From a virus, in the IMG/VR virus record IMGVR_UViG_3300045988_171586: DNA of 39,292 nt. The stretch is one strand, 5' to 3'. The translations under genes and the position numbers were made by a program. Positions within the stretch are counted from its first letter, which is position 1; every line of letters starts with the position of its first letter. The notes beneath the pieces are model-generated. The model was given only the letters and a program-made list of their open reading frames with translations, had not been told where the DNA came from and ran no database searches. Shown here one piece after another: positions 404 to 37,313 of the stretch.

Positions 404-1735
404 ATGGGATTATTCAATAAAAAAGAATTGAAACGTATTGAAGAATTAGAAAAAGAAAATGCTGAATATCTTTCTAAAATTGAACAATTAGGCGCAAAAG
501 AGCTATTTGATATTCAAAATGAAATCAAAGAACTTCAACAAACTAAACTTGATGTAGAAAAAGATATTCAAGAAAAAAATGAAGAGTTATTGGATGTTAA
601 AAGAGATATTAATAGCGCAGTATTTGAGCTTAAAGCAAAAGAAGAAGAAATCAAGCGATTGGATTTAGATCTTGATGTAATGGACTTTGGCATTTATACA
701 CCTAAATACAATTGTATGAATTCTGAAGAATATGCCACAAAAATCAAAGAAAATAGAAACAAACAAAAAGAAATGATAAAAAATAAAACTGCTCTTAACT
801 ATTTTGACAGTTGGACTTTAGATGGAAGTTTAGCAAAAGGTCGAGCAATGAATAATGATAACATGAAAATGTATTTAAGAGCATTTAATAACGAATGTGA
901 TTCATTGATTTCAAAAGTAAAATTTAATAATTTTGATAGAATCGAAGAACGTATTAAAAAATGTGCTAAAGCCTTAGATAAGCTTAATCAAAGAACCAAA
1001 ATATCTGTTTCTTATAAATATTTAAAGCTAAAAATTGATGAACTTCATCTGGTACATGAATATCATTGCAAAAAACAAGAAGAAAAAGATGCAATGCGTG
1101 CTGCAAGAGAAGAAGAACGTGAACAAGCTAAATTACAAAAAGAAATAGAAGAAGCAAGAAAATCCATTACCAAAGAAAAGAAACATTATGAAAATGCTAG
1201 AGAAAAATTTGTTCTTCAATTAGAAAAATGTTCAACTAATAAAGAAAAAAGTGAAATACAATCAAAAATAAAAGAAATAGATGAAAAACTAACCGAAATA
1301 AAAAAGAATTTAGAAAATATAGATTATAGAGAAGCTAACAAAAGAGCTGGTTATGTATACGTTATTTCTAATATTGGTTCATTTGGTGAAGGAATATATA
1401 AAATAGGAATGACAAGAAGATTGGAACCAATGGATCGTGTAGATGAATTAGGTGATGCTTCTGTTCCATTTAAATTTGATGTTCATGCTATGATTTTCAG
1501 TGATGATGCTCCAACACTTGAAAATGCCCTACATAAAGCCTTTGATGATAGAAAAGTAAATATGATCAATGGGCGAAAAGAATTTTTTAGGGTTTCTTTA
1601 GAAGAAATAGAAAAAGTTGTAAAAGAAAATCATGAAAAATTAATAGAATTTAATGAAGTCCCTGATGCGGAACAATATAGAGAAACACTAAAAATAAAAG
1701 AATCATTAATAAAAGGGAAAAAAATAGATGAATAA
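404..1735 (+). CDS. Coiled-coil (DUF4041-like) N-terminus plus a C-terminal T5orf172/GIY-YIG-like domain, 443 aa.
   Basis: The start codon is 4 nt after the cI stop, and the RBS GGGAGGA lies inside the cI 3' end. About 330 aa are Lys/Glu-rich coiled coil. The C-terminus carries the GIY-YIG residues G-Y-V...Y-K-I-G...R-R...E (AGYVYVISNIGSFGEGIYKIGMTRR...LENALHKAF). Confidence 0.75.
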   Translation: MGLFNKKELKRIEELEKENAEYLSKIEQLGAKELFDIQNEIKELQQTKLDVEKDIQEKNEELLDVKRDINSAVFELKAKEEEIKRLDLDLDVMDFGIYTPKYNCMNSEEYATKIKENRNKQKEMIKNKTALNYFDSWTLDGSLAKGRAMNNDNMKMYLRAFNNECDSLISKVKFNNFDRIEERIKKCAKALDKLNQRTKISVSYKYLKLKIDELHLVHEYHCKKQEEKDAMRAAREEEREQAKLQKEIEEARKSITKEKKHYENAREKFVLQLEKCSTNKEKSEIQSKIKEIDEKLTEIKKNLENIDYREANKRAGYVYVISNIGSFGEGIYKIGMTRRLEPMDRVDELGDASVPFKFDVHAMIFSDDAPTLENALHKAFDDRKVNMINGRKEFFRVSLEEIEKVVKENHEKLIEFNEVPDAEQYRETLKIKESLIKGKKIDE

Positions 1736-2590: not shown

Positions 2591-3742
2591 ATGAAAGGAC
2601 GTGTTTTTATTATGGCTAGAAAAACAACATATAAGCGTAGACCTAATAATTCAGGAACAGTAGTTAAGTTATCAGGAAAGAGAAGAAAGCCCTACTGTGC
2701 AAGAATTTTAAGCAATGATAGAGATTTGATTACTGGTAGAAAGAAACAAGTAGCTATTGGCACTTTTGAAACTGAACTAGAAGCTTTAAATGCTCTATCT
2801 CTTTATCATATGACTTCTAATAGAGAAATAACAAAGAATGAAGCTAAAGAATTGAATAATGACTTATACAACAAAATACAATCCAAAAGAGATAACATAC
2901 CAACATTTAAAGAAATCTTTGATATTTTAAATGAAGAAGAGTTTTCATTGTTATCAAAATCATCAAAAGCTGGATATAATTCATGGATCAAACACTTTAA
3001 AAAAATATATAATAGAAAAATAAATGACATTGACTTGCAAGATTTACAATTTATTTTTGATAATGATAAATGCGGTACAGGAACCAAAAACCATATGAAA
3101 GTACTTTGTATTAAAATTTTCAAATACGCAGTTATTCATCAATATATTAATCGTGATGATGATTATACAGAATTTATTAATTGTGGTAAGAATGAAGAAA
3201 GTAAAAAGCATTATGCCTTCTCATATGATGAAATTAAGCGTTTGAGGGAAGAAAACACCGACATCGCTAAAATTATACTTATTTATATTTTTAGTGGACT
3301 ACGAGCAAATGAATTACTTAATATCGATAGAAAAGATATTCATATTGATGAAGTTTGTAATGATGATGGTGTTGAAAGAAAAGTATCTTATTTCTTTACT
3401 GGTTTAAAAACAGATGCAGGAAGAAACAGAGTTGTTCCAATCCATGATTTTATTAAACCTTTTGTAATTGAATTGCTGCTAAAGAAAAGAAAAAGAATTA
3501 TTGATAATACATATAGTATTTTTAAAGATGCTAGTTTCAATCCATATATGAAAGAATTAAACATGAATCATACCATGCATGATACAAGAGTTACATTTAC
3601 TACTTTATGTCAATTAAATAATGTTGATGTTTTTAGTAGAAAAAGAATTCTTGGCCACAAAATGAAAGATATTACTTTTGATACTTATACTGATACGATC
3701 ATCAATAAATTATTCGTAGAAATAAATAAAATCAAGGTGTGA
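2591..3742 (+). CDS. int: Tyrosine recombinase / phage integrase. An alternative start is at 2612.
   Basis: The N-terminus is an arm-binding-like basic region. The C-terminus carries H-x-x-R (HTMHDTR) and the catalytic-Tyr motif (LGHKMKDITFDTYTD). Confidence 0.9.
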   Translation: MKGRVFIMARKTTYKRRPNNSGTVVKLSGKRRKPYCARILSNDRDLITGRKKQVAIGTFETELEALNALSLYHMTSNREITKNEAKELNNDLYNKIQSKRDNIPTFKEIFDILNEEEFSLLSKSSKAGYNSWIKHFKKIYNRKINDIDLQDLQFIFDNDKCGTGTKNHMKVLCIKIFKYAVIHQYINRDDDYTEFINCGKNEESKKHYAFSYDEIKRLREENTDIAKIILIYIFSGLRANELLNIDRKDIHIDEVCNDDGVERKVSYFFTGLKTDAGRNRVVPIHDFIKPFVIELLLKKRKRIIDNTYSIFKDASFNPYMKELNMNHTMHDTRVTFTTLCQLNNVDVFSRKRILGHKMKDITFDTYTDTIINKLFVEINKIKV

Positions 3743-4116: not shown

Positions 4117-4839
4117 TTAGACTTTTTTCAAGTAGTCTCCTGAAAGCCAACCTGAAGGAGTTCTAGCCCATCCATTCTTCCATTCGTAAACAGTTACTCT
4201 TGTTCCTCTTTCAAGACATCCATCTTTATCTTTATCATGTTTCTTTCCATCAGCAGTTAATTCATTATGAGTTTTTCTTCGATAATTAGTTCCAGAACCA
4301 GTTCTAACACTTAAATCACTAGCAGTAACTTCATATGTTCCTGTTGGTCTTTCACTTGATGAAGTCGATTGTGATGGTTTGGCTTGTGTAGGTGTTGAAG
4401 CAATAACTGCTTTTACGATTTCATCAAACGGAAAATTAGTTCCTGGGCAATTAGTAGAGCAAACATCTTTATGTTTTTGAACTTTAGAAATTCCATATTT
4501 TTTCTTTAAATAAGAAACTAATTCTCTACCCGCATTAATTTGTGTTTGACCCATTGTTTCTGTCATATAAGAACCTTCAAAACAAATTCCAATAGAATCA
4601 CTATTTGAACCTTTTGCATGTGATCCAACTGTATTTTCAGGTCTACCACGATAAATAGAGCCATCTTTTCTAACAAAGAAATGATAGCCAATACCTGCCC
4701 ATCCATTTGCTAAATGCCAACTATGGATATCATCTGCAGTACATGATTTTGATTCAGCATGATGTAAGATGATTCTATTTGTTGATTTTCTATTTTTTAA
4801 ATTTCCATTCCATTTATAATTTTTTTCAATAATATTCAT
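4117..4839 (-). CDS. Endolysin: N-acetylmuramoyl-L-alanine amidase (Amidase_2/PGRP-type) with a C-terminal SH3b-like cell-wall-binding domain.
   Basis: Amidase_2 motifs are IILHHAES and GIGYHFFVRKDGSIYRG...SIGICFEGSY. A Thr/Ser-rich linker follows. The C-terminus is SH3b-like (YEWKNGWARTPSGWLSGDYL). Confidence 0.9.
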   Translation of the reverse strand: MNIIEKNYKWNGNLKNRKSTNRIILHHAESKSCTADDIHSWHLANGWAGIGYHFFVRKDGSIYRGRPENTVGSHAKGSNSDSIGICFEGSYMTETMGQTQINAGRELVSYLKKKYGISKVQKHKDVCSTNCPGTNFPFDEIVKAVIASTPTQAKPSQSTSSSERPTGTYEVTASDLSVRTGSGTNYRRKTHNELTADGKKHDKDKDGCLERGTRVTVYEWKNGWARTPSGWLSGDYLKKV

Positions 4840-4854
4840 TTTTCTTTTTCTCCT

Positions 4855-5349
4855 TTATTCTACAAAACTCCAATCATTTGATAACATGTCAGCTTGAGAA
4901 GCTAACCAACCTAATTGAATACCACTTGTCCCATGGAAAGCGATGGCTTTGTTTCCCATATCTACGTGATCTACATTAATAACTTCATCATTAGGTGTTT
5001 TAAAAGATACATTTGTAGCAAGTTCAATATACTGTTCTTTACCGTTCCAACCTTTGCGTTTTACTTTCATTCCACGTTTTAAATACTTTATAGCTTCATC
5101 AAACCCAAATGTAGCAACTCCACCTAACTCAGGACAATTATTCTTATCGGCAATCATCCATTCATTACTACAAATATTTAAAGCTGTATATTCAACTCTT
5201 TCTGTTTCTCTGATGTCTAATTCTTTGCCTTCCTTAGTGTGCATGATGATTGTTTCTTTTTCATTATCATAAAACCAATAACCACTCCAACTTGGAAGTT
5301 TCATTTTCATTCCTTGTTTCATTAATTCTAAAGCTTTTTTAAATTCCAT
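4855..5349 (-). CDS. Tandem-DUF2829 protein (two DUF2829/Tad2-like repeats), 164 aa.
   Basis: Two internal repeats each have the A-x-E-x-x-K-x-G-x-K...GW signature: ALELMKQGMKMKLPSWSGYW and AIKYLKRGMKVKRKGWNGKEQY. The C-terminus is WLASQADMLSNDW, with a first-repeat counterpart SNEWMIADK. Confidence 0.6.
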   Translation of the reverse strand: MEFKKALELMKQGMKMKLPSWSGYWFYDNEKETIIMHTKEGKELDIRETERVEYTALNICSNEWMIADKNNCPELGGVATFGFDEAIKYLKRGMKVKRKGWNGKEQYIELATNVSFKTPNDEVINVDHVDMGNKAIAFHGTSGIQLGWLASQADMLSNDWSFVE

Positions 5350-5393
5350 AATTATTCTCCTTTTTTCAAAATTAAAGAGTAGCCCTTTTTTGA

Positions 5394-5819
5394 CTACTCA
5401 TTCTCTTGATCTTCATCATTGTTTAACTGTTCTAACGCAGTTTTGATTTTATTTGGAATTGGAACACCTAGATTAGAAATGTTTTCTAATAGGCTAATTC
5501 CTTCATTCGCAATATAGAAATACGCTACAAGCGTTCTAAATACCCAAGTGCCACCATTTCCAAGCATACGATCTAATTCCACTCCTACAATAAGAACGGC
5601 TAGAATCATGCATTTTTTAATTAATCCTCTAAAGCCGACCTCACTATTAAGTGTTTTAATTACATAAGCATAAATTACACCTGTCACATAATCTAATACC
5701 ATGAATGTAATTAAAATCTTTAAAGCTAAATCCCAGCCACCAAATAGATACGTAAAAAAAGTAGCTAAGATAGCTACTGCTGTGTTGAATACTTTTTCCA
5801 TATTATTCATTTTCCTCAC
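5394..5819 (-). CDS. Holin of the TcdE/phage_holin_4_1 family (toxin secretion / phage lysis holin).
   Basis: It has three predicted transmembrane segments, the family-typical FMVLDYVTGVIYA motif, and an acidic C-terminus (NNDEDQENE). Confidence 0.85.
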   Translation of the reverse strand: MRKMNNMEKVFNTAVAILATFFTYLFGGWDLALKILITFMVLDYVTGVIYAYVIKTLNSEVGFRGLIKKCMILAVLIVGVELDRMLGNGGTWVFRTLVAYFYIANEGISLLENISNLGVPIPNKIKTALEQLNNDEDQENE

Positions 5820-6090: not shown

Positions 6091-6474
6091 TTAAGTTGTT
6101 TTGATATATTTCAATATTGCATAGCCTGTTGCATTTTGAAAACCATTTGATTGTCCAACTTGCAATATTAAATTTGTTTTAGTTATTTGAATAGAAATAC
6201 CATCATGATCATCATCTTTATGTGCGCGCGGCATCATGTGGTTTGTTCCATCACTTATTTTCATAAATAAATCACAACTCAATACTCTGTATAAATCTGA
6301 TATATTATGTGGTACATATTTATCCTTGCTATCAAACCCAGTTACGAGTATGACTTTGCAATATATCTTTACTCCGTTTATCCAGTATTCACCCGTAAAC
6401 TGTTCTTCAGTAGAATACTTAAAATAAACATCCTTTTTTCTAACTTTATTTCCAAAAAACTTAATAAATTTCAT
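6091..6474 (-). CDS. Tail-tip / receptor-binding-like paralog 1, 127 aa.
   Basis: The N-terminus MKFIKFFGNKVRKKDVYFKYSTEEQFTGEYWINGVKIY is shared with the paralog at 6908..7321. The C-terminus is divergent. Confidence 0.6.
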   Translation of the reverse strand: MKFIKFFGNKVRKKDVYFKYSTEEQFTGEYWINGVKIYCKVILVTGFDSKDKYVPHNISDLYRVLSCDLFMKISDGTNHMMPRAHKDDDHDGISIQITKTNLILQVGQSNGFQNATGYAILKYIKTT

Positions 6475-6500
6475 TAGTTATGATATTTACTATTCGTTTT

Positions 6501-26504: not shown

Positions 26505-26578
26505 TGGTTGCAGGACTAGGATTCAAACCTAGAATACAAATTTAAGAGACTTGCGTGATATCATTTCACCATCCTGCC
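26505..26578 (-). tRNA. tRNA-like gene, tRNA-Lys(CUU)-like, 71 nt plus an encoded CCA. Non-canonical: G1:A72 mismatch, U56, and a single G in the D-loop.
   Basis: On the - strand the cloverleaf reads GGCAGGA-TG-GTGA-AATGATA-TCAC-G-CAAGT-CTCTTAA-ATTTG-TATT-CTAGG-TTTGAAT-CCTAG-TCCTGCA-ACCA. It has a 4-bp D stem, 5-bp anticodon stem, 5-bp T stem, U33 and A37 around the CUU anticodon, and A73 before CCA. Confidence 0.4.
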
Positions 26579-28738: not shown

Positions 28739-29145
28739 TCCAATTCCTCCAATCGAATATATATACCTGGTATTTCCGCCCAGAACTTTTCAATCAGCTC
28801 GCTGGCCACTCTGGAATCATTTACATAAAACCCTAATCTTTCCATGATGTCTTTCAATGCCTTGTTCAAATCATCAGTATCAGGCTTAGTATATTTGTAC
28901 TCTCCATCATGATGTTTACCAGCAATTGGAAAGCACCACCTGACGATTAATCTTAAAGGTCCATCAAAAGGCTTATCAGGAATATGTGGTATCAAATGAG
29001 CTTTCAGCTTTTCTTTTGCGGTTTTAAGTTCTGGTGGATCATAAAACTTCTTTGTGCCCATGTTCACCTTATGCTGTTGAGCAGTTGTAGTAGGTGGAAT
29101 CATAGGCATGAAAAATTCTATTTTTCTTTTCTTATTTTTCTCCAT
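28735..29145 (-). CDS. rusA: RusA-family Holliday junction resolvase, 136 aa.
   Basis: The C-terminal motif is KPDTDDLNKALKDIMERLGFYVNDSRV, a D-x-D-N-x-x-K...D signature. The position at the end of the replication module fits. Confidence 0.75.
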   Translation of the reverse strand: MEKNKKRKIEFFMPMIPPTTTAQQHKVNMGTKKFYDPPELKTAKEKLKAHLIPHIPDKPFDGPLRLIVRWCFPIAGKHHDGEYKYTKPDTDDLNKALKDIMERLGFYVNDSRVASELIEKFWAEIPGIYIRLEELE

Positions 29146-29196
29146 TTTTTTACTAGGGTGCTCTAGGTTTGGTGCCCTCTATCGTGCGGGGTGAGT

Positions 29197-29332
29197 GTTC
29201 GTCGTGCGTAAGCTGTCGCACGACACTTACCTCCGCGTTAGAGGGGTGCGCCAAAAATATTTATATTATGTATATAATATAGGTTCGTCGCACCCCCTAT
29301 GCGACCATGCGACACATCATAGTTCGTCGCAC
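29197..29332. repeat. GC-rich non-coding island with 11-mer direct repeats (GTTCGTCGCAC), inverted half-sites and an AT-rich spacer. Candidate origin of replication (iterons).
   Basis: GTTCGTCGCAC occurs at 29283..29293 and 29322..29332, with a 9/11 variant at 29197..29207. The inverted stem GTCGTGCG/CGCACGAC is at 29201..29224. TGCGAC occurs twice at 29300..29314. An AT-only stretch runs 29251..29281. Local GC is above 55%, against ~30% elsewhere. Confidence 0.5.
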
Positions 29333-29335
29333 TCT

Positions 29336-31588
29336 TTAGTTTTCCTTTCTTTTGATATATCTTTTGCCATCTTCTCCATAATATGCTTCGAAATTTGCAA
29401 CTAAATCTTCATTGCTTTTTTTGCCTTTTCCAAGCCAACCTAATAAAGTTTTTGGAACAGTATTCATTTTCTCTGCAAGCTCATCTGCAGGTACTTCTCT
29501 ACCCTCTATTTCAATATTTGAGAATTCTATTTCAAATTCATTCACTTTTTTCTTTTTATTCTTAGCAACTTGCTCATGTCTTTTTTCTTGTGCTTTTTGC
29601 CATTGAGGTTTTATATCATCAGGATCAATATCTTGAAGTGCTCCATCTTCATCCAATACATGTACTGGATATTCAAAATAAAGGTTTACTGGCGGAAATT
29701 TTGAGAACTCTCTCAATGTTCCTTCAATTCTCCATGCAGTAATTGATGTAGCTTTTGAACGTGCTTCATTGACAAGATTATCAAGTTCTTTGTAGTAGTC
29801 ATGGCCAAGCTTACTTTTACAAAAATCAATCATGATAGTTTGTGATAAAACATCATCTTGAGATAGTTCATTTAAAAGTTCAGGTCTATGTTCTTTTAAG
29901 TAATCGACACAAACTCTACATGCACTCATATTTCTTAACTGTTTGTAATGTGATTCATTTAGTTCCAATTCAATTAAATCTAGTAAAGCATCAGGATCAC
30001 GTGCAAATACACCTGAACCACTAGCGCGGTCCATACTTCTTTTACCACCTTGAGAACCTTTCGAATGGTGATGGCAGTAGATTACTGATGTACCTAACTC
30101 ATTACATATCTTGTCAAACTGGTTACAGAAATTAGCCATTTGGTCGGCACTGTTTTCATCTCCGGTAATAACTTTGTAGATTGGATCTATGACTACTGCT
30201 ATATAATCCTTTTTAGAAGCTCTTCTAATCAATTTAGGGGCAAGTTTATCCATGGGAATAGATTTACCCCTTAGGTTCCAAATATCGATATTAGACAAAG
30301 AATTAGGCTTAATGCCAAGTGCTTTATAAACATCCTTGAATCTATGCAAACATGATGGTCTATCTAACTCCAAATTGACATACAATATTCTTCCTCGAGC
30401 ACACTGCCATCCAAACCATTTTGTTCCTTCAGCAATCGCGATACACATCTCAATCAATGCAAATGACTTACCTGCTTTACTAGGTCCAGCAATAAGCATC
30501 TTGTGTCCTTGTCTTAGAATTCCTTCTATTAATGGCGGTGCAAGTTGAGGCATATCATCCCAAAATTCACTTAATGATTCAGGATCAGGTAAATCATCAT
30601 TGATGCTTTCAATCCATTCATACCACTCTTCCCAGGAACTTTTACCAATGTTGGTATCAACAAGGAATTGTTTTCTTCCTTTTCTTGTAATTCCTGGCAT
30701 TCTTGAAAGTCTCGAAGGATTTCTATTTTGAGTATCAACATCTAGTCCATTCTTTTTACAAATGTTATAGAGATAATCAACACGCTTACGATATTCCTTC
30801 ATATCTGCAGCTTCGATTTTTACAATCGCATGTAGGCTTTTACCACCTGAATGAACTAAACAAGCTATTGGAAGTTCTAATTCTCTCAGTACTGCATTTT
30901 GTTCTTCGATTGCCATTGAATCGCTTTCTACAAGAGCATATTTAAAATCGGTCACATTTTGGTTCTTACAGCCTTTTCCATCCAACGGGTTAAATCGTAT
31001 CCATGCACCTGCTTCTTCGTTGTAGTCGCCTAAAACTGCACCTATATCGCCTTTGCAATTATTCAACTGTTGTATAAGTTTTCCTGCAGTTCTATCCCAG
31101 CACCCTTGTGTTGGCAGATATTTTTCATCTTTAAGCCATGTTTTGGTTACATAGCCTACATTTTCAGTAGAATCAAAAAGTGTTTCCAGATAAGTAATTA
31201 ATTCAGCTACTGGATTCCAGTTAAGAGGCTCTTTGACCTCTTTCCCTTCAATCCAATTCTTATCAACTATGACCTGTTCATCTTTATCAATAACATCATT
31301 CCAGTCAAGTTCATGGCCACTTTCTTTTATTGGTGGAACCCACCCCTGATTTTTAGCATACTGAACAATAGTTCCGCCTGTTACACCTGAACCAGTAAAA
31401 GACTCCCATTTTCTATAGCATTCATTTTTATGATATCTTTTAGAGTCACGTTGACTCCAGTAATCCCAGTCACTAGCTGGATATCCTTCATATTTGAGTG
31501 CCATTCCAACACAACACCACTCTTGGTAGTCAAGCAAAGAAGGATCTATATTATTCAGTATTTCTAATAAATCAGTTGTATACTCCAT
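29336..31588 (-). CDS. DNA primase-polymerase / helicase, 750 aa. It has an N-terminal PriCT-2-like region, a prim-pol domain, and a RecA-like AAA_25/RepA-type helicase domain.
   Basis: The prim-pol-like region is ...VHSGGKSLHAIV.... Walker A is AGPSKAGKSF and Walker B is IAVVIDPI. Confidence 0.85.
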   Translation of the reverse strand: MEYTTDLLEILNNIDPSLLDYQEWCCVGMALKYEGYPASDWDYWSQRDSKRYHKNECYRKWESFTGSGVTGGTIVQYAKNQGWVPPIKESGHELDWNDVIDKDEQVIVDKNWIEGKEVKEPLNWNPVAELITYLETLFDSTENVGYVTKTWLKDEKYLPTQGCWDRTAGKLIQQLNNCKGDIGAVLGDYNEEAGAWIRFNPLDGKGCKNQNVTDFKYALVESDSMAIEEQNAVLRELELPIACLVHSGGKSLHAIVKIEAADMKEYRKRVDYLYNICKKNGLDVDTQNRNPSRLSRMPGITRKGRKQFLVDTNIGKSSWEEWYEWIESINDDLPDPESLSEFWDDMPQLAPPLIEGILRQGHKMLIAGPSKAGKSFALIEMCIAIAEGTKWFGWQCARGRILYVNLELDRPSCLHRFKDVYKALGIKPNSLSNIDIWNLRGKSIPMDKLAPKLIRRASKKDYIAVVIDPIYKVITGDENSADQMANFCNQFDKICNELGTSVIYCHHHSKGSQGGKRSMDRASGSGVFARDPDALLDLIELELNESHYKQLRNMSACRVCVDYLKEHRPELLNELSQDDVLSQTIMIDFCKSKLGHDYYKELDNLVNEARSKATSITAWRIEGTLREFSKFPPVNLYFEYPVHVLDEDGALQDIDPDDIKPQWQKAQEKRHEQVAKNKKKKVNEFEIEFSNIEIEGREVPADELAEKMNTVPKTLLGWLGKGKKSNEDLVANFEAYYGEDGKRYIKRKEN

Positions 31589-36112: not shown

Positions 36113-36470
36113 CTTTACTTTCCCCTTTGTCCATTTCTTCAATTTTATTTTCAATAAGCTCTTTTAATGTATTCGTACATTTTTCGAACTCATTTGTTGC
36201 TGATTTATAAATATCCTTTACTTGTTTTTCTGAAATACCGTATGCTTCACTTAAGAAATCACTTCCGCTACTTCCTAATCCTGCCTTCATTTCAAGGGCA
36301 AGATTGTCATCTTCATCATAGTAAACTGTAGATAGCAATCTGATAATGTTCAATTCAGGCTTTTCTTTAGGCCCAAAAATTAAATCCTTTCCACTGATTT
36401 TTGCTACTTCAATATCTTTTGCACCCGCATCTTTAGCAGCTTGAATAATACTTTCTAGAAACTTATCCAT
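36096..36470 (-). CDS. Hypothetical acidic protein, 124 aa.
   Basis: A clean ORF with the RBS GAGGGAG 7 nt upstream of the ATG at 36470. Confidence 0.5.
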   Translation of the reverse strand: MDKFLESIIQAAKDAGAKDIEVAKISGKDLIFGPKEKPELNIIRLLSTVYYDEDDNLALEMKAGLGSSGSDFLSEAYGISEKQVKDIYKSATNEFEKCTNTLKELIENKIEEMDKGESKDVSED

Positions 36471-36472
36471 TT

Positions 36473-37012
36473 TTATTTCTCCCTCTTGATGTATATTTCT
36501 TTGTACTTGACACCAAAGCTGTTACTTTGATGTTCCACCCATACGTCAATGACATTATTTTTAACTGCTCCTCCACAATCTTCAGCCACGTAAATTTGGC
36601 CATCAATCATGATTTCACTTCCATATGGGATTATTTTAGGGTCTACAGCGATTGTATGATTGACTTGAGCTCTAACTCCTGTAGCGGTTAGATCTCCATA
36701 CTCATCTTCTCCGTACCAATATGCGGTAATTCTAAAGACCCCTAGAGCTTTTCATTTAGAAAGCTCTTCAACTTCTTTTTGTAGTTGGTCCTTTTCAACT
36801 GCAATACACTCGTACATTGCTTTGTACTTTGTATATTCTTGAAGCTGACCTTGCATATCATTGAGTTCATCCTTGTACAACTCAATTTGTTTACTTTGTT
36901 CTTCATACTTTGCTTCTACTGATTTAGCCTGAGCATAACCAGTTCCTGCAAAGATTAAACTTGCTACACAAGCACCAAACAATGTAACCTGTGCTTTTTG
37001 AGTTAATCTCAT
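36473..37012 (-). pseudogene. 3D-domain (YuiC/MltA-like) secreted protein gene interrupted by a single in-frame TGA at 36752..36754. The upstream part (36752..37012) encodes a signal peptide plus coiled-coil. The downstream part (36476..36751) encodes an intact 3D domain.
   Basis: In the same frame as the 86-aa ORF and directly after its TGA, the sequence reads KALGVFRITAYWYGEDEYGDLTATGVRAQVNHTIAVDPKIIPYGSEIMIDGQIYVAEDCGGAVKNNVIDVWVEH.... This is the canonical 3D-domain pattern (DP..IP.G...YVAED.GGA.K.N.ID.W). There is no ATG between the TGA and the domain. Confidence 0.6.
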
Positions 37013-37031
37013 ATTGCAAATCCTCCTGATT

Positions 37032-37313
37032 TTATTTATAATTTGGTTGGTTATGTTGTGTGTCCTTTATAAGGGCACTTTTTTCATTTAAAGAATTAAG
37101 CAATGCAATAATCAACTCTTCGCTAGGACTTTTATTGAAATGATTCATATAATCCTCAAATGCTTTTCTAGGAATATGTACATTTCTTCTCTTCCCTGAA
37201 GCATCAACACTTCCAGGAAATGTACCTTGTTGGATAGCATTGATTATGAACTCCCTGCTTTTGTGAGTTACCTTCATTACTTCTTCAATTGAAATATTGA
37301 ATTCATCATTCAT
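37032..37313 (-). CDS. HTH_17/excisionase-like DNA-binding protein. The likely start is the ATG at 37313, because the ORF-track start at 37352 is a GTG.
   Basis: ISIEEVMKVTHKSREFIINAIQQGTFPG....HIPRKAFEDYM matches an Xis/MerR-like HTH_17. The RBS GGGGTG lies 7 nt before the ATG at 37313. Confidence 0.5.
   Translation of the reverse strand: MNDEFNISIEEVMKVTHKSREFIINAIQQGTFPGSVDASGKRRNVHIPRKAFEDYMNHFNKSPSEELIIALLNSLNEKSALIKDTQHNQPNYK

Follow-up and report, generated by a model that had tools for sequence, protein, structure and literature searches.

A 3D-domain gene on the minus strand of the IMG/VR virus record IMGVR_UViG_3300045988_171586, a stretch of 39,292 nucleotides that was analyzed whole and is called the window here, is interrupted by a single in-frame TGA at 36752..36754. 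Comparison with its relatives makes it probable that this is one gene carrying a conserved, programmed and functional leaky UGA stop; from the sequences we infer the occurrence of readthrough, its efficiency, and the insertion of Trp at the stop. Read on the minus strand, the start ATG of the interrupted gene (37012..37010) lies 9 nucleotides behind its sole strong ribosome-binding site, the Shine-Dalgarno sequence AGGAGG (37027..37022). The upstream open reading frame (ORF) holds 86 sense codons (36755..37012), which would be the short product if translation stopped at the TGA. It encodes a Lys/Arg-rich N terminus, a hydrophobic signal peptide or signal-anchor segment (AQVTLFGACVASLIFAGTGYAQA, 36926..36994; about residues 7–27, ending in GYAQA↓KS), which is kept in alignments A1 and A3, and a long helix or coiled coil up to residue 86. 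The AXA motif (AQA↓K) suggests signal-peptide cleavage. The TGA, in the context AAA-UGA-A, is the proposed readthrough (recoding) site, and it is followed by a 92-codon extension (36476..36751) and a terminal TAA (36473..36475). An earlier sequence-only reading of this DNA had described an ORF ended by this TGA with 92 in-frame codons directly after it, and had taken the N-terminal half for a signal or transmembrane segment plus a coiled coil; both descriptions were correct, and the peptide that it quoted, IAVDPKIIPYGSEIMIDGQIYVAEDCGGAVKNNVIDVW, was found in the translation.

The 92 residues past the TGA had been called a textbook 3D domain, and profile searches agreed. They matched the Pfam family 3D (PF06725) with an E value of 4e-11 and 43.4 bits, against a curated cut-off of 23.8, and together with a hidden Markov model profile of the family and Foldseek this identified a complete 3D domain, a double-psi beta-barrel of the YuiC/MltA type. 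The Pfam model core (36521..36655) contains the three name-giving aspartates, D124 (36641..36643), D145 (36578..36580), and D156 (36545..36547), the last of which corresponds to the catalytic D162 of YuiC and D308 of MltA. Searched against the Protein Data Bank, the family profile retrieved YuiC (4WLK/4WJT) with an E value of 4e-10. The structure was taken from the AlphaFold2 model of the public protein P0001, which is 97% identical to the window protein (mean predicted local distance difference test score 80; 85–94 over the domain). In this model, residues 6–86 form a single helix and the first barrel beta-strand starts at the Trp/UGA residue, so that the stop coincides exactly with the point where helix and barrel meet. 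Foldseek ranked YuiC (4WLK/4WLI/4WJT) at the top and MltA (2PIC/2AE0) next, with a probability of 1.00 for all. The three aspartates and T96 were invariant in 40 relatives (D125/D146/D157/T97 in alignment A3, since residue numbers in P0001 and A3 are those of the fused protein plus one), and the YuiC motifs AADP, ADTG, LDLY, and VTA aligned with the aspartates and Thr of the family. YuiC is a lytic transglycosylase that forms a 1,6-anhydro product; its conserved aspartates D129, D151, and D162 correspond to D261, D297, and D308 of MltA, and its T91 orients the catalytic Asp (PMC4499186). The extension is a genuine 3D domain. It probably has wall-cutting enzyme activity, and the hydrophobic N terminus with its AQA↓K motif predicts export of the protein.

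A megablast search of the locus against annotated phage records gave no match, and relatives were sought at the protein level. More than 100 "full-length" relatives of 177–181 residues were found, all showing W at the column of the stop. The contigs behind these relatives, however, do not yield such proteins under translation table 11, and their DNA has an in-frame stop at this position; the W appears because gene callers picked table 4. When the codons themselves were counted, TGA was present in 43 of 43 close loci. In the wider family, for which the census was anchored on the conserved motifs TIAVDP and LG.F.IT, 58 of 68 distinct haplotypes carried TGA, down to about 40% protein identity. 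The carriers include an isolate scaffold of Faecalibacillus faecis (NZ_PYLP01000006), an Erysipelotrichaceae metagenome-assembled genome, Coprobacillus sp. isolates, and Maintenon (ON453900), a cultured and completely sequenced phage of Clostridium innocuum. The check suggested earlier, for a sense codon here in homologues, showed TGG in a minority of them, whereas most homologues retain TGA. On the tree, the third base of the TGA changed 5 times, compared with 7–17 times at neighboring silent sites; the extra conservation over silent sites is real but modest.

The coding sequence on both sides of the stop is under purifying selection. Median pairwise dN/dS (the ratio of nonsynonymous to synonymous substitution rates) was 0.18 across the 86 codons before the stop and 0.13 in the 3D half after it, both at dS >1. 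These data bear on two explanations, a sequencing error in an ordinary gene and a recent inactivating mutation that has left a pseudogene. Either would require just one transition at a Trp codon, from TGG to TGA. Nevertheless, the identical TGA recurs in the 58 haplotypes, which come from independent assemblies, isolates, and a cultured phage, and selection on the downstream half is strong, so that we regard this explanation as scarcely credible. The recurrence of the TGA down to about 40% protein identity, with the dN/dS of 0.13, refutes both the sequencing error and the recent nonsense mutation that the sequence-only reading had considered. Its remaining alternative, UGA readthrough that yields an exported 3D protein of ~179 residues at low level, is the one favored by the comparative evidence. 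The other explanations tested (ALTERNATIVES) were genetic code 4 or a recoded phage, selenocysteine, separate initiation, and mutational switching.

Separate initiation would make the locus two genes, with efficient termination at the UGA and production of the 3D half by non-canonical initiation or by termination-reinitiation. The 3D half had been said to lack an ATG of its own ahead of the domain, and indeed the first in-frame ATG beyond the TGA is M131 at 36610, within the domain. In the window gene, there is no ATG, GTG, or TTG between the TGA and the first domain strand, and no purine-rich Shine-Dalgarno-like site comparable to AGGAGG lies 5' of the TGA for the 3D half. Across the relatives, no conserved ATG, GTG, TTG, or Shine-Dalgarno site was found from the stop to the first beta-strand. 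Reinitiation at the ATG that overlaps the stop (AAATGA) was rejected as well, given that it is in the wrong frame and yields only MKSSRGL followed by a stop in the window; a derivative represented by locus L134 is the exception. One candidate for such a start is the Ile codon (ATT/ATA/ATC) conserved in the motif F-x-I-T, which the NCBI Prokaryotic Genome Annotation Pipeline (PGAP) uses ('MTAYWYG...') to give products of 83–85 residues in the Coprobacillus isolates. The seven codons from the TGA to this Ile (K/R-A/S-L-G-x-F-x), however, are kept as amino acids while their silent sites vary, and the first of them (K/R-A/S-L-G) show only silent changes (GCT/GCA/GCG, CTA/CTT/TTA, and GGG/GGC/GGT). 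Because their amino acids are conserved and they form the first barrel beta-strand in the model, these seven codons appear to be translated. No Shine-Dalgarno site precedes them, the Ile codon itself alternates among ATT, ATA, and ATC, and an Ile-started product would be without its first strand and without an export signal, which is senseless for a peptidoglycan enzyme. The L134 derivative does favor separate initiation. In L134 (1501..1776) and L135 (1211..1486), compared with L131 (1724..1815), a single C is deleted 13 nucleotides past the TGA (GGCCAG to GGCAG). This deletion puts the overlapping ATG of AAATGA in frame and creates a separate ORF of 91 residues without an export signal, which was seen in the samples SRR12159453 and SRR12159454 only. 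Taken together, we consider two genes unlikely, and the comparative data indicate that the downstream half is translated in frame directly from the stop.

The residue and the context at the stop column fit a leaky stop in one gene. Among the sense relatives, TGG is the most frequent codon at the column, in L096, in phage Amboise (an intact coding sequence [CDS] of 158 codons, WAK79389), and in L125, L127, and L129, while others have CGA, TTG, or ATG, and none has a Cys codon. In a profile alignment with Bacillus subtilis YuiC, a Trp of YuiC aligned to the same column. The TGG codons and the aligned YuiC Trp indicate that Trp is the native residue at the stop column. Since the stop falls exactly where helix and domain join, a position taken by Trp in uninterrupted relatives, a readthrough product with Trp would have the native sequence. 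All of the 57 TGA haplotypes examined had A at positions -3, -2, and +4 (AAA/AAG/AAT-UGA-A), and the sense variants have different codons flanking this column. UGA followed by A at +4 is the context most liable to misreading by tRNA-Trp (PMC5289835), and near-cognate tRNA-Trp(CCA) inserts Trp at UGA in Escherichia coli and B. subtilis (PMC5289835, PMC10570021, and PMC7918605). Wild-type B. subtilis reads about 6% of UGA as Trp (PMC6316719 and PMC7918605), and the status of host tRNA-Trp and release factor 2 (RF2) varies with physiology and between single cells (PMC10570021).

In a neighbor-joining tree built from the 3D half, clades with TGA were interleaved with sense clades, which indicates at least five switches between stop and sense and a TGA state that was gained or lost repeatedly; CGA, for example, occurs within an otherwise TGA clade (L076 versus L077). 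Most telling is L129, which has TGG at the canonical site and a second in-frame AAA-TGA-A 16 codons upstream, in the linker. With this linker TGA, the same device would have been placed independently between export signal and enzyme domain. The repeated interconversion of TGA and sense codons, the CGA in a TGA clade, and the viability of a sense version in phage Amboise could also be accommodated by a genetic switch, in which TGA turns the gene off and enzyme comes solely from the subpopulation where TGA has mutated to TGG or another sense codon, the interruption being maintained by recurrent mutation and selection against constitutive expression. The site, however, has no hypermutable tract, its surroundings being A3-TG-A4 only. 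Moreover, if the gene stayed off over dS >1, the 3D half would escape selection, whereas dN/dS is 0.13 inside TGA clades, and a switch leaves the invariance of the context unexplained. We therefore hold mutational switching to be quite improbable.

Decoding of UGA as a cognate sense codon, through an alternative code, a tRNA(UCA) suppressor, a code-4-like host, or a stop-codon-recoded phage, is suggested by the table 4 that metagenome gene callers assigned to the contigs, reporting W, by the hosts being Erysipelotrichales, an order related to the Mollicutes with their UGA=Trp code, and by a tRNA-Trp gene in phage Maintenon. The window argues otherwise. At least nine other real genes in it end in TGA, including genes of 606 and 383 codons, and this stop usage rules out code 4 as a genome-wide explanation. 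No other long TGA-bridged ORF exists in the window; among its TGA-terminated ORFs, only the interrupted 3D gene has a long open extension (92 codons, compared with 0–53 in the others). Within the gene itself, the two remaining Trp residues are encoded by TGG. No suppressor tRNA was found in the window, whose sole tRNA is a tRNA-Lys(CTT) (26505..26578, minus strand), which is not a suppressor, and in 50 related loci the 3–6 kb around the gene contained no tRNA of any kind. The anticodon of the Maintenon tRNA-Trp is CCA, and its anticodon stem has the normal 5 bp. These findings leave cognate decoding very unlikely, and the TGA is best read as a case of site-specific recoding, not of a code change.

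Maintenon (L136) carries genes for tRNA-Trp(CCA), tRNA-Gln(TTG), and tRNA-Met at 29137..29616. Parsed by hand, its tRNA-Trp has, besides the 5-bp anticodon stem, a U11-A24 pair. A Hirsh-type A24 may be natural in Firmicute tRNA-Trp, a point for which we found no literature support and which serves as a lead only. The additional tRNA-Trp could raise UGA readthrough in Maintenon; the window phage has no tRNA-Trp.

A stimulatory RNA structure was sought by folding the 75 nucleotides past the UGA in 45 haplotypes and by alifold, and none was found family-wide; in the window's own clade, folding was no better than in shuffled sequence (z about 0). Rfam searches over 36300..37200 at E ≤10 gave chance hits only. 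One sub-clade (LGQF..YWPG; L007, L012, L023, L031, L037, L088, and L091, among others) has a 10-bp hairpin at +9 to +44 after the UGA, with z down to -3.3. This hairpin is made of two palindromic UGGCCA motifs, which are Gly-Gln and Trp-Pro codons, and is absent in the window's clade. Where present, the hairpin may either stimulate readthrough locally or simply follow from the amino acid sequence. A conserved in-frame UGA, together with this hairpin beginning about 9 nucleotides past it, would also fit selenocysteine at the UGA. Across the family, however, alifold was empty, with z about 0 in the window clade, and Rfam showed no match to a selenocysteine insertion sequence. In addition, the sense homologues have Trp, Arg, Leu, or Met and never Cys, and the residue is a structural junction rather than a redox site. 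Selenocysteine is thus a highly improbable reading. Editing of the UGA by a TadA-type A-to-I deaminase was considered and tentatively set aside, as the site is without a UACG loop motif.

According to the leaky-stop model, translation would initiate at the ATG at 37012 behind the strong Shine-Dalgarno site, and the majority of ribosomes would stop at the UGA (36754..36752) to release an exported or membrane-anchored helical protein of 86 residues. A minority, perhaps a few per cent, would decode the UGA by ordinary Trp-tRNA(CCA) in competition with RF2, aided by the AAA-UGA-A context, and would add 92 codons to give a protein of ~179 residues. This longer form would consist of the signal/coiled-coil module with a 3D lytic-transglycosylase domain of the YuiC/MltA type, held outside the membrane. 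Such an arrangement may hold the dose of a potentially lethal, early-expressed wall-cutting enzyme very low. It may also fix, by way of the common coiled coil, how much scaffold there is for each enzyme-tipped scaffold, as in coat/A1 of Qbeta and G/GT of lambda, or may couple enzyme output to the tRNA-Trp/RF2 physiology of the host.

Several observations weigh against a programmed leaky stop. Sense codons (TGG, CGA, TTG, and ATG) serve several lineages well, which shows that the family can do without the stop. The gain in third-base conservation is modest (5 versus about 11 changes), and the TGA haplotypes are phylogenetically related. Part of the invariance of the A-rich context is due to the Lys/Asn and Lys/Arg/Thr codons and the AT-rich genome. 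Because no stimulatory RNA is conserved in the family, the efficiency of readthrough would depend on context and host leakiness alone, and that readthrough takes place in Erysipelotrichales, and how efficiently, is something we infer. Finally, the rare L134/L135 derivative has a separately initiated 3D ORF, which shows that other solutions for expression are possible.

Erysipelotrichales are a sister lineage of the Mollicutes that read UGA as Trp. We tentatively suggest, as an idea that is more probably wrong than right, that Erysipelotrichales have an intrinsically high, context-dependent decoding of UGA as Trp, an "ambiguous intermediate" of code-4 reassignment, which phages and small integrative elements would have exploited repeatedly by placing AAA-UGA-A at the junction Trp, setting a fixed, physiology-sensitive ratio of the secreted coiled-coil scaffold to the form that bears the enzyme. 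If this holds, conserved programmed readthrough would be described for the first time in double-stranded DNA (dsDNA) phages of Gram-positive bacteria.

To our knowledge, bacteria and their DNA phages offer very few well-supported cases of programmed stop-codon readthrough, and the textbook case is the RNA phage Qbeta. Readthrough as a class of mechanism is already known; our literature search found no description of this 3D family or of conserved readthrough in a 3D-domain phage gene. In coat/A1 of Qbeta, as in the model proposed here, a leaky UGA-A ends an abundant short protein, Trp decoding adds a functional C-terminal domain, and both products share the N-terminal module at a fixed low ratio (PMC11890864 and PMC5289835). 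Unlike the 3D gene, Qbeta is a single-stranded RNA phage of E. coli, its products are virion proteins, and its readthrough is proven, whereas that of the 3D gene is predicted by sequence comparison; the 3D gene is found in the early region of temperate dsDNA phages, and in small integrative elements, of Erysipelotrichales, and its extension is a peptidoglycan-cleaving domain by family. The tail-chaperone frameshift of the lambda G/GT type is likewise a conserved recoding event, by which one phage gene gives two products, short and long, that share their N terminus and are made at a ribosome-set ratio (PMC6316719), but it is a -1 frameshift at a slippery heptamer in late structural genes, whereas the 3D gene would use stop misreading with no change of frame. 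Stop-codon-recoded gut phages resemble the window, which is likewise from a gut phage, in that an in-frame TGA has to be decoded and automatic callers give code 4. In those phages, TGA or TAG is reassigned, usually with a suppressor tRNA and mainly in late genes, whereas in the window one site in one early gene is affected, other genes end in TGA in the normal way, and there is no suppressor tRNA.

Among the relatives of the enzyme itself, YuiC of B. subtilis (an SpsC-type stationary-phase survival protein; 4WJT, 4WLK, and 4WLI) and the 3D domain of MltA share the domain, its three aspartates, and the orienting Thr. YuiC also has a signal peptide, a short extension, and a catalytic domain, with a Trp before the first strand at the UGA column. 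In contrast to the phage proteins, it is chromosomal and uninterrupted; the phage proteins add a coiled coil of ~55 residues and a stop that replaces the Trp. Uninterrupted phage 3D proteins (Amboise WAK79389, SPO1-like Bacillus phages, and SPbeta YorM) are likewise small, N-terminally anchored, and encoded outside the lysis cassette, adjacent to replication genes, but they have a sense codon at the junction, which is TGG in Amboise. YorM was noted as phage-borne (PMC4499186). Conserved in-frame stops are enriched in mobilome genes, where Belinky et al. mostly treated them as pseudogenes (PMC7918605).

With its dozens of naturally replicated sites, independent origins, and TGG "controls", the family shows a minimal signal, AAA-UGA-A without RNA structure. 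The hosts Faecalibacillus and C. innocuum are culturable and Maintenon is a cultured phage, so that the context rules and the use of leaky termination can be tested directly in Gram-positive anaerobes. The predicted product also raises the question of why the early operon of a temperate phage should supply a trace of membrane-tethered lytic transglycosylase. For annotation, the consequence is that gene callers wrongly give code 4 to these contigs. The public proteins P0001–P0099 are table-4 "full-length" entries with an artefactual W, and RGE92835.1 and RHT87472.1 are PGAP fragments of 83–85 residues with an artificial ATT start; none of these match the DNA under table 11. In L010, L011, L016, L019, and L021, the 3D ORF ends in ...KRE-TGA-ATT-TAA(-TAA), and table-4 calls lengthen this end to '...KREWI'. 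In the Maintenon record, the 3D half is uncalled and two small reverse-strand CDSs annotated as 'hypothetical protein' lie over it (L043 1572..1814, equal to 6239..6481 of the record); these reverse-strand CDSs are probably spurious.

The two halves of the gene have different histories. L023 is near-identical in the upstream half and saturated in the downstream half, and L010 shows the opposite, which indicates that the halves recombine as modules; the TGA at the joint is retained in every recombinant. Three public proteins, P0100, P0102, and P0105, have the signal/coiled-coil module (93–94% identity over about 85 residues) fused to unrelated C termini, one of them an AraC-type helix-turn-helix. 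These fusions come from very short contigs and may reflect module shuffling or chimeric assemblies. In L131, L132, and L134, the interrupted 3D gene is part of a small element that encodes a rolling-circle REP_ORF2-G2P initiator and an integrase, instead of a tailed-phage replication module, which indicates that the gene moves among different kinds of mobile elements.

In the window, the interrupted 3D gene is at the head of a replication and recombination module (SbcC-like ATPase, Sak4-like annealase, helicase, and primase) and ~31 kb away from the holin/amidase cassette (4117..5819). Its placement in the early/replication region rather than in the lysis cassette had been remarked upon earlier, and these neighbors and this distance support it. 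The lysis cassette comprises an amidase endolysin (4117..4839) and a holin (5394..5819), and inside it lies a Tad2-like gene (anti-Thoeris, PF11195, E value 1e-22; 4855..5349, minus strand). At the left end, a DUF4041 plus T5orf172/MUG113 protein and a weak integrase-family match (E value 5e-4, below the Pfam cut-off) are encoded on the plus strand at 404..1735 and 2591..3742, respectively, and these genes are consistent with the end of a temperate phage or prophage.

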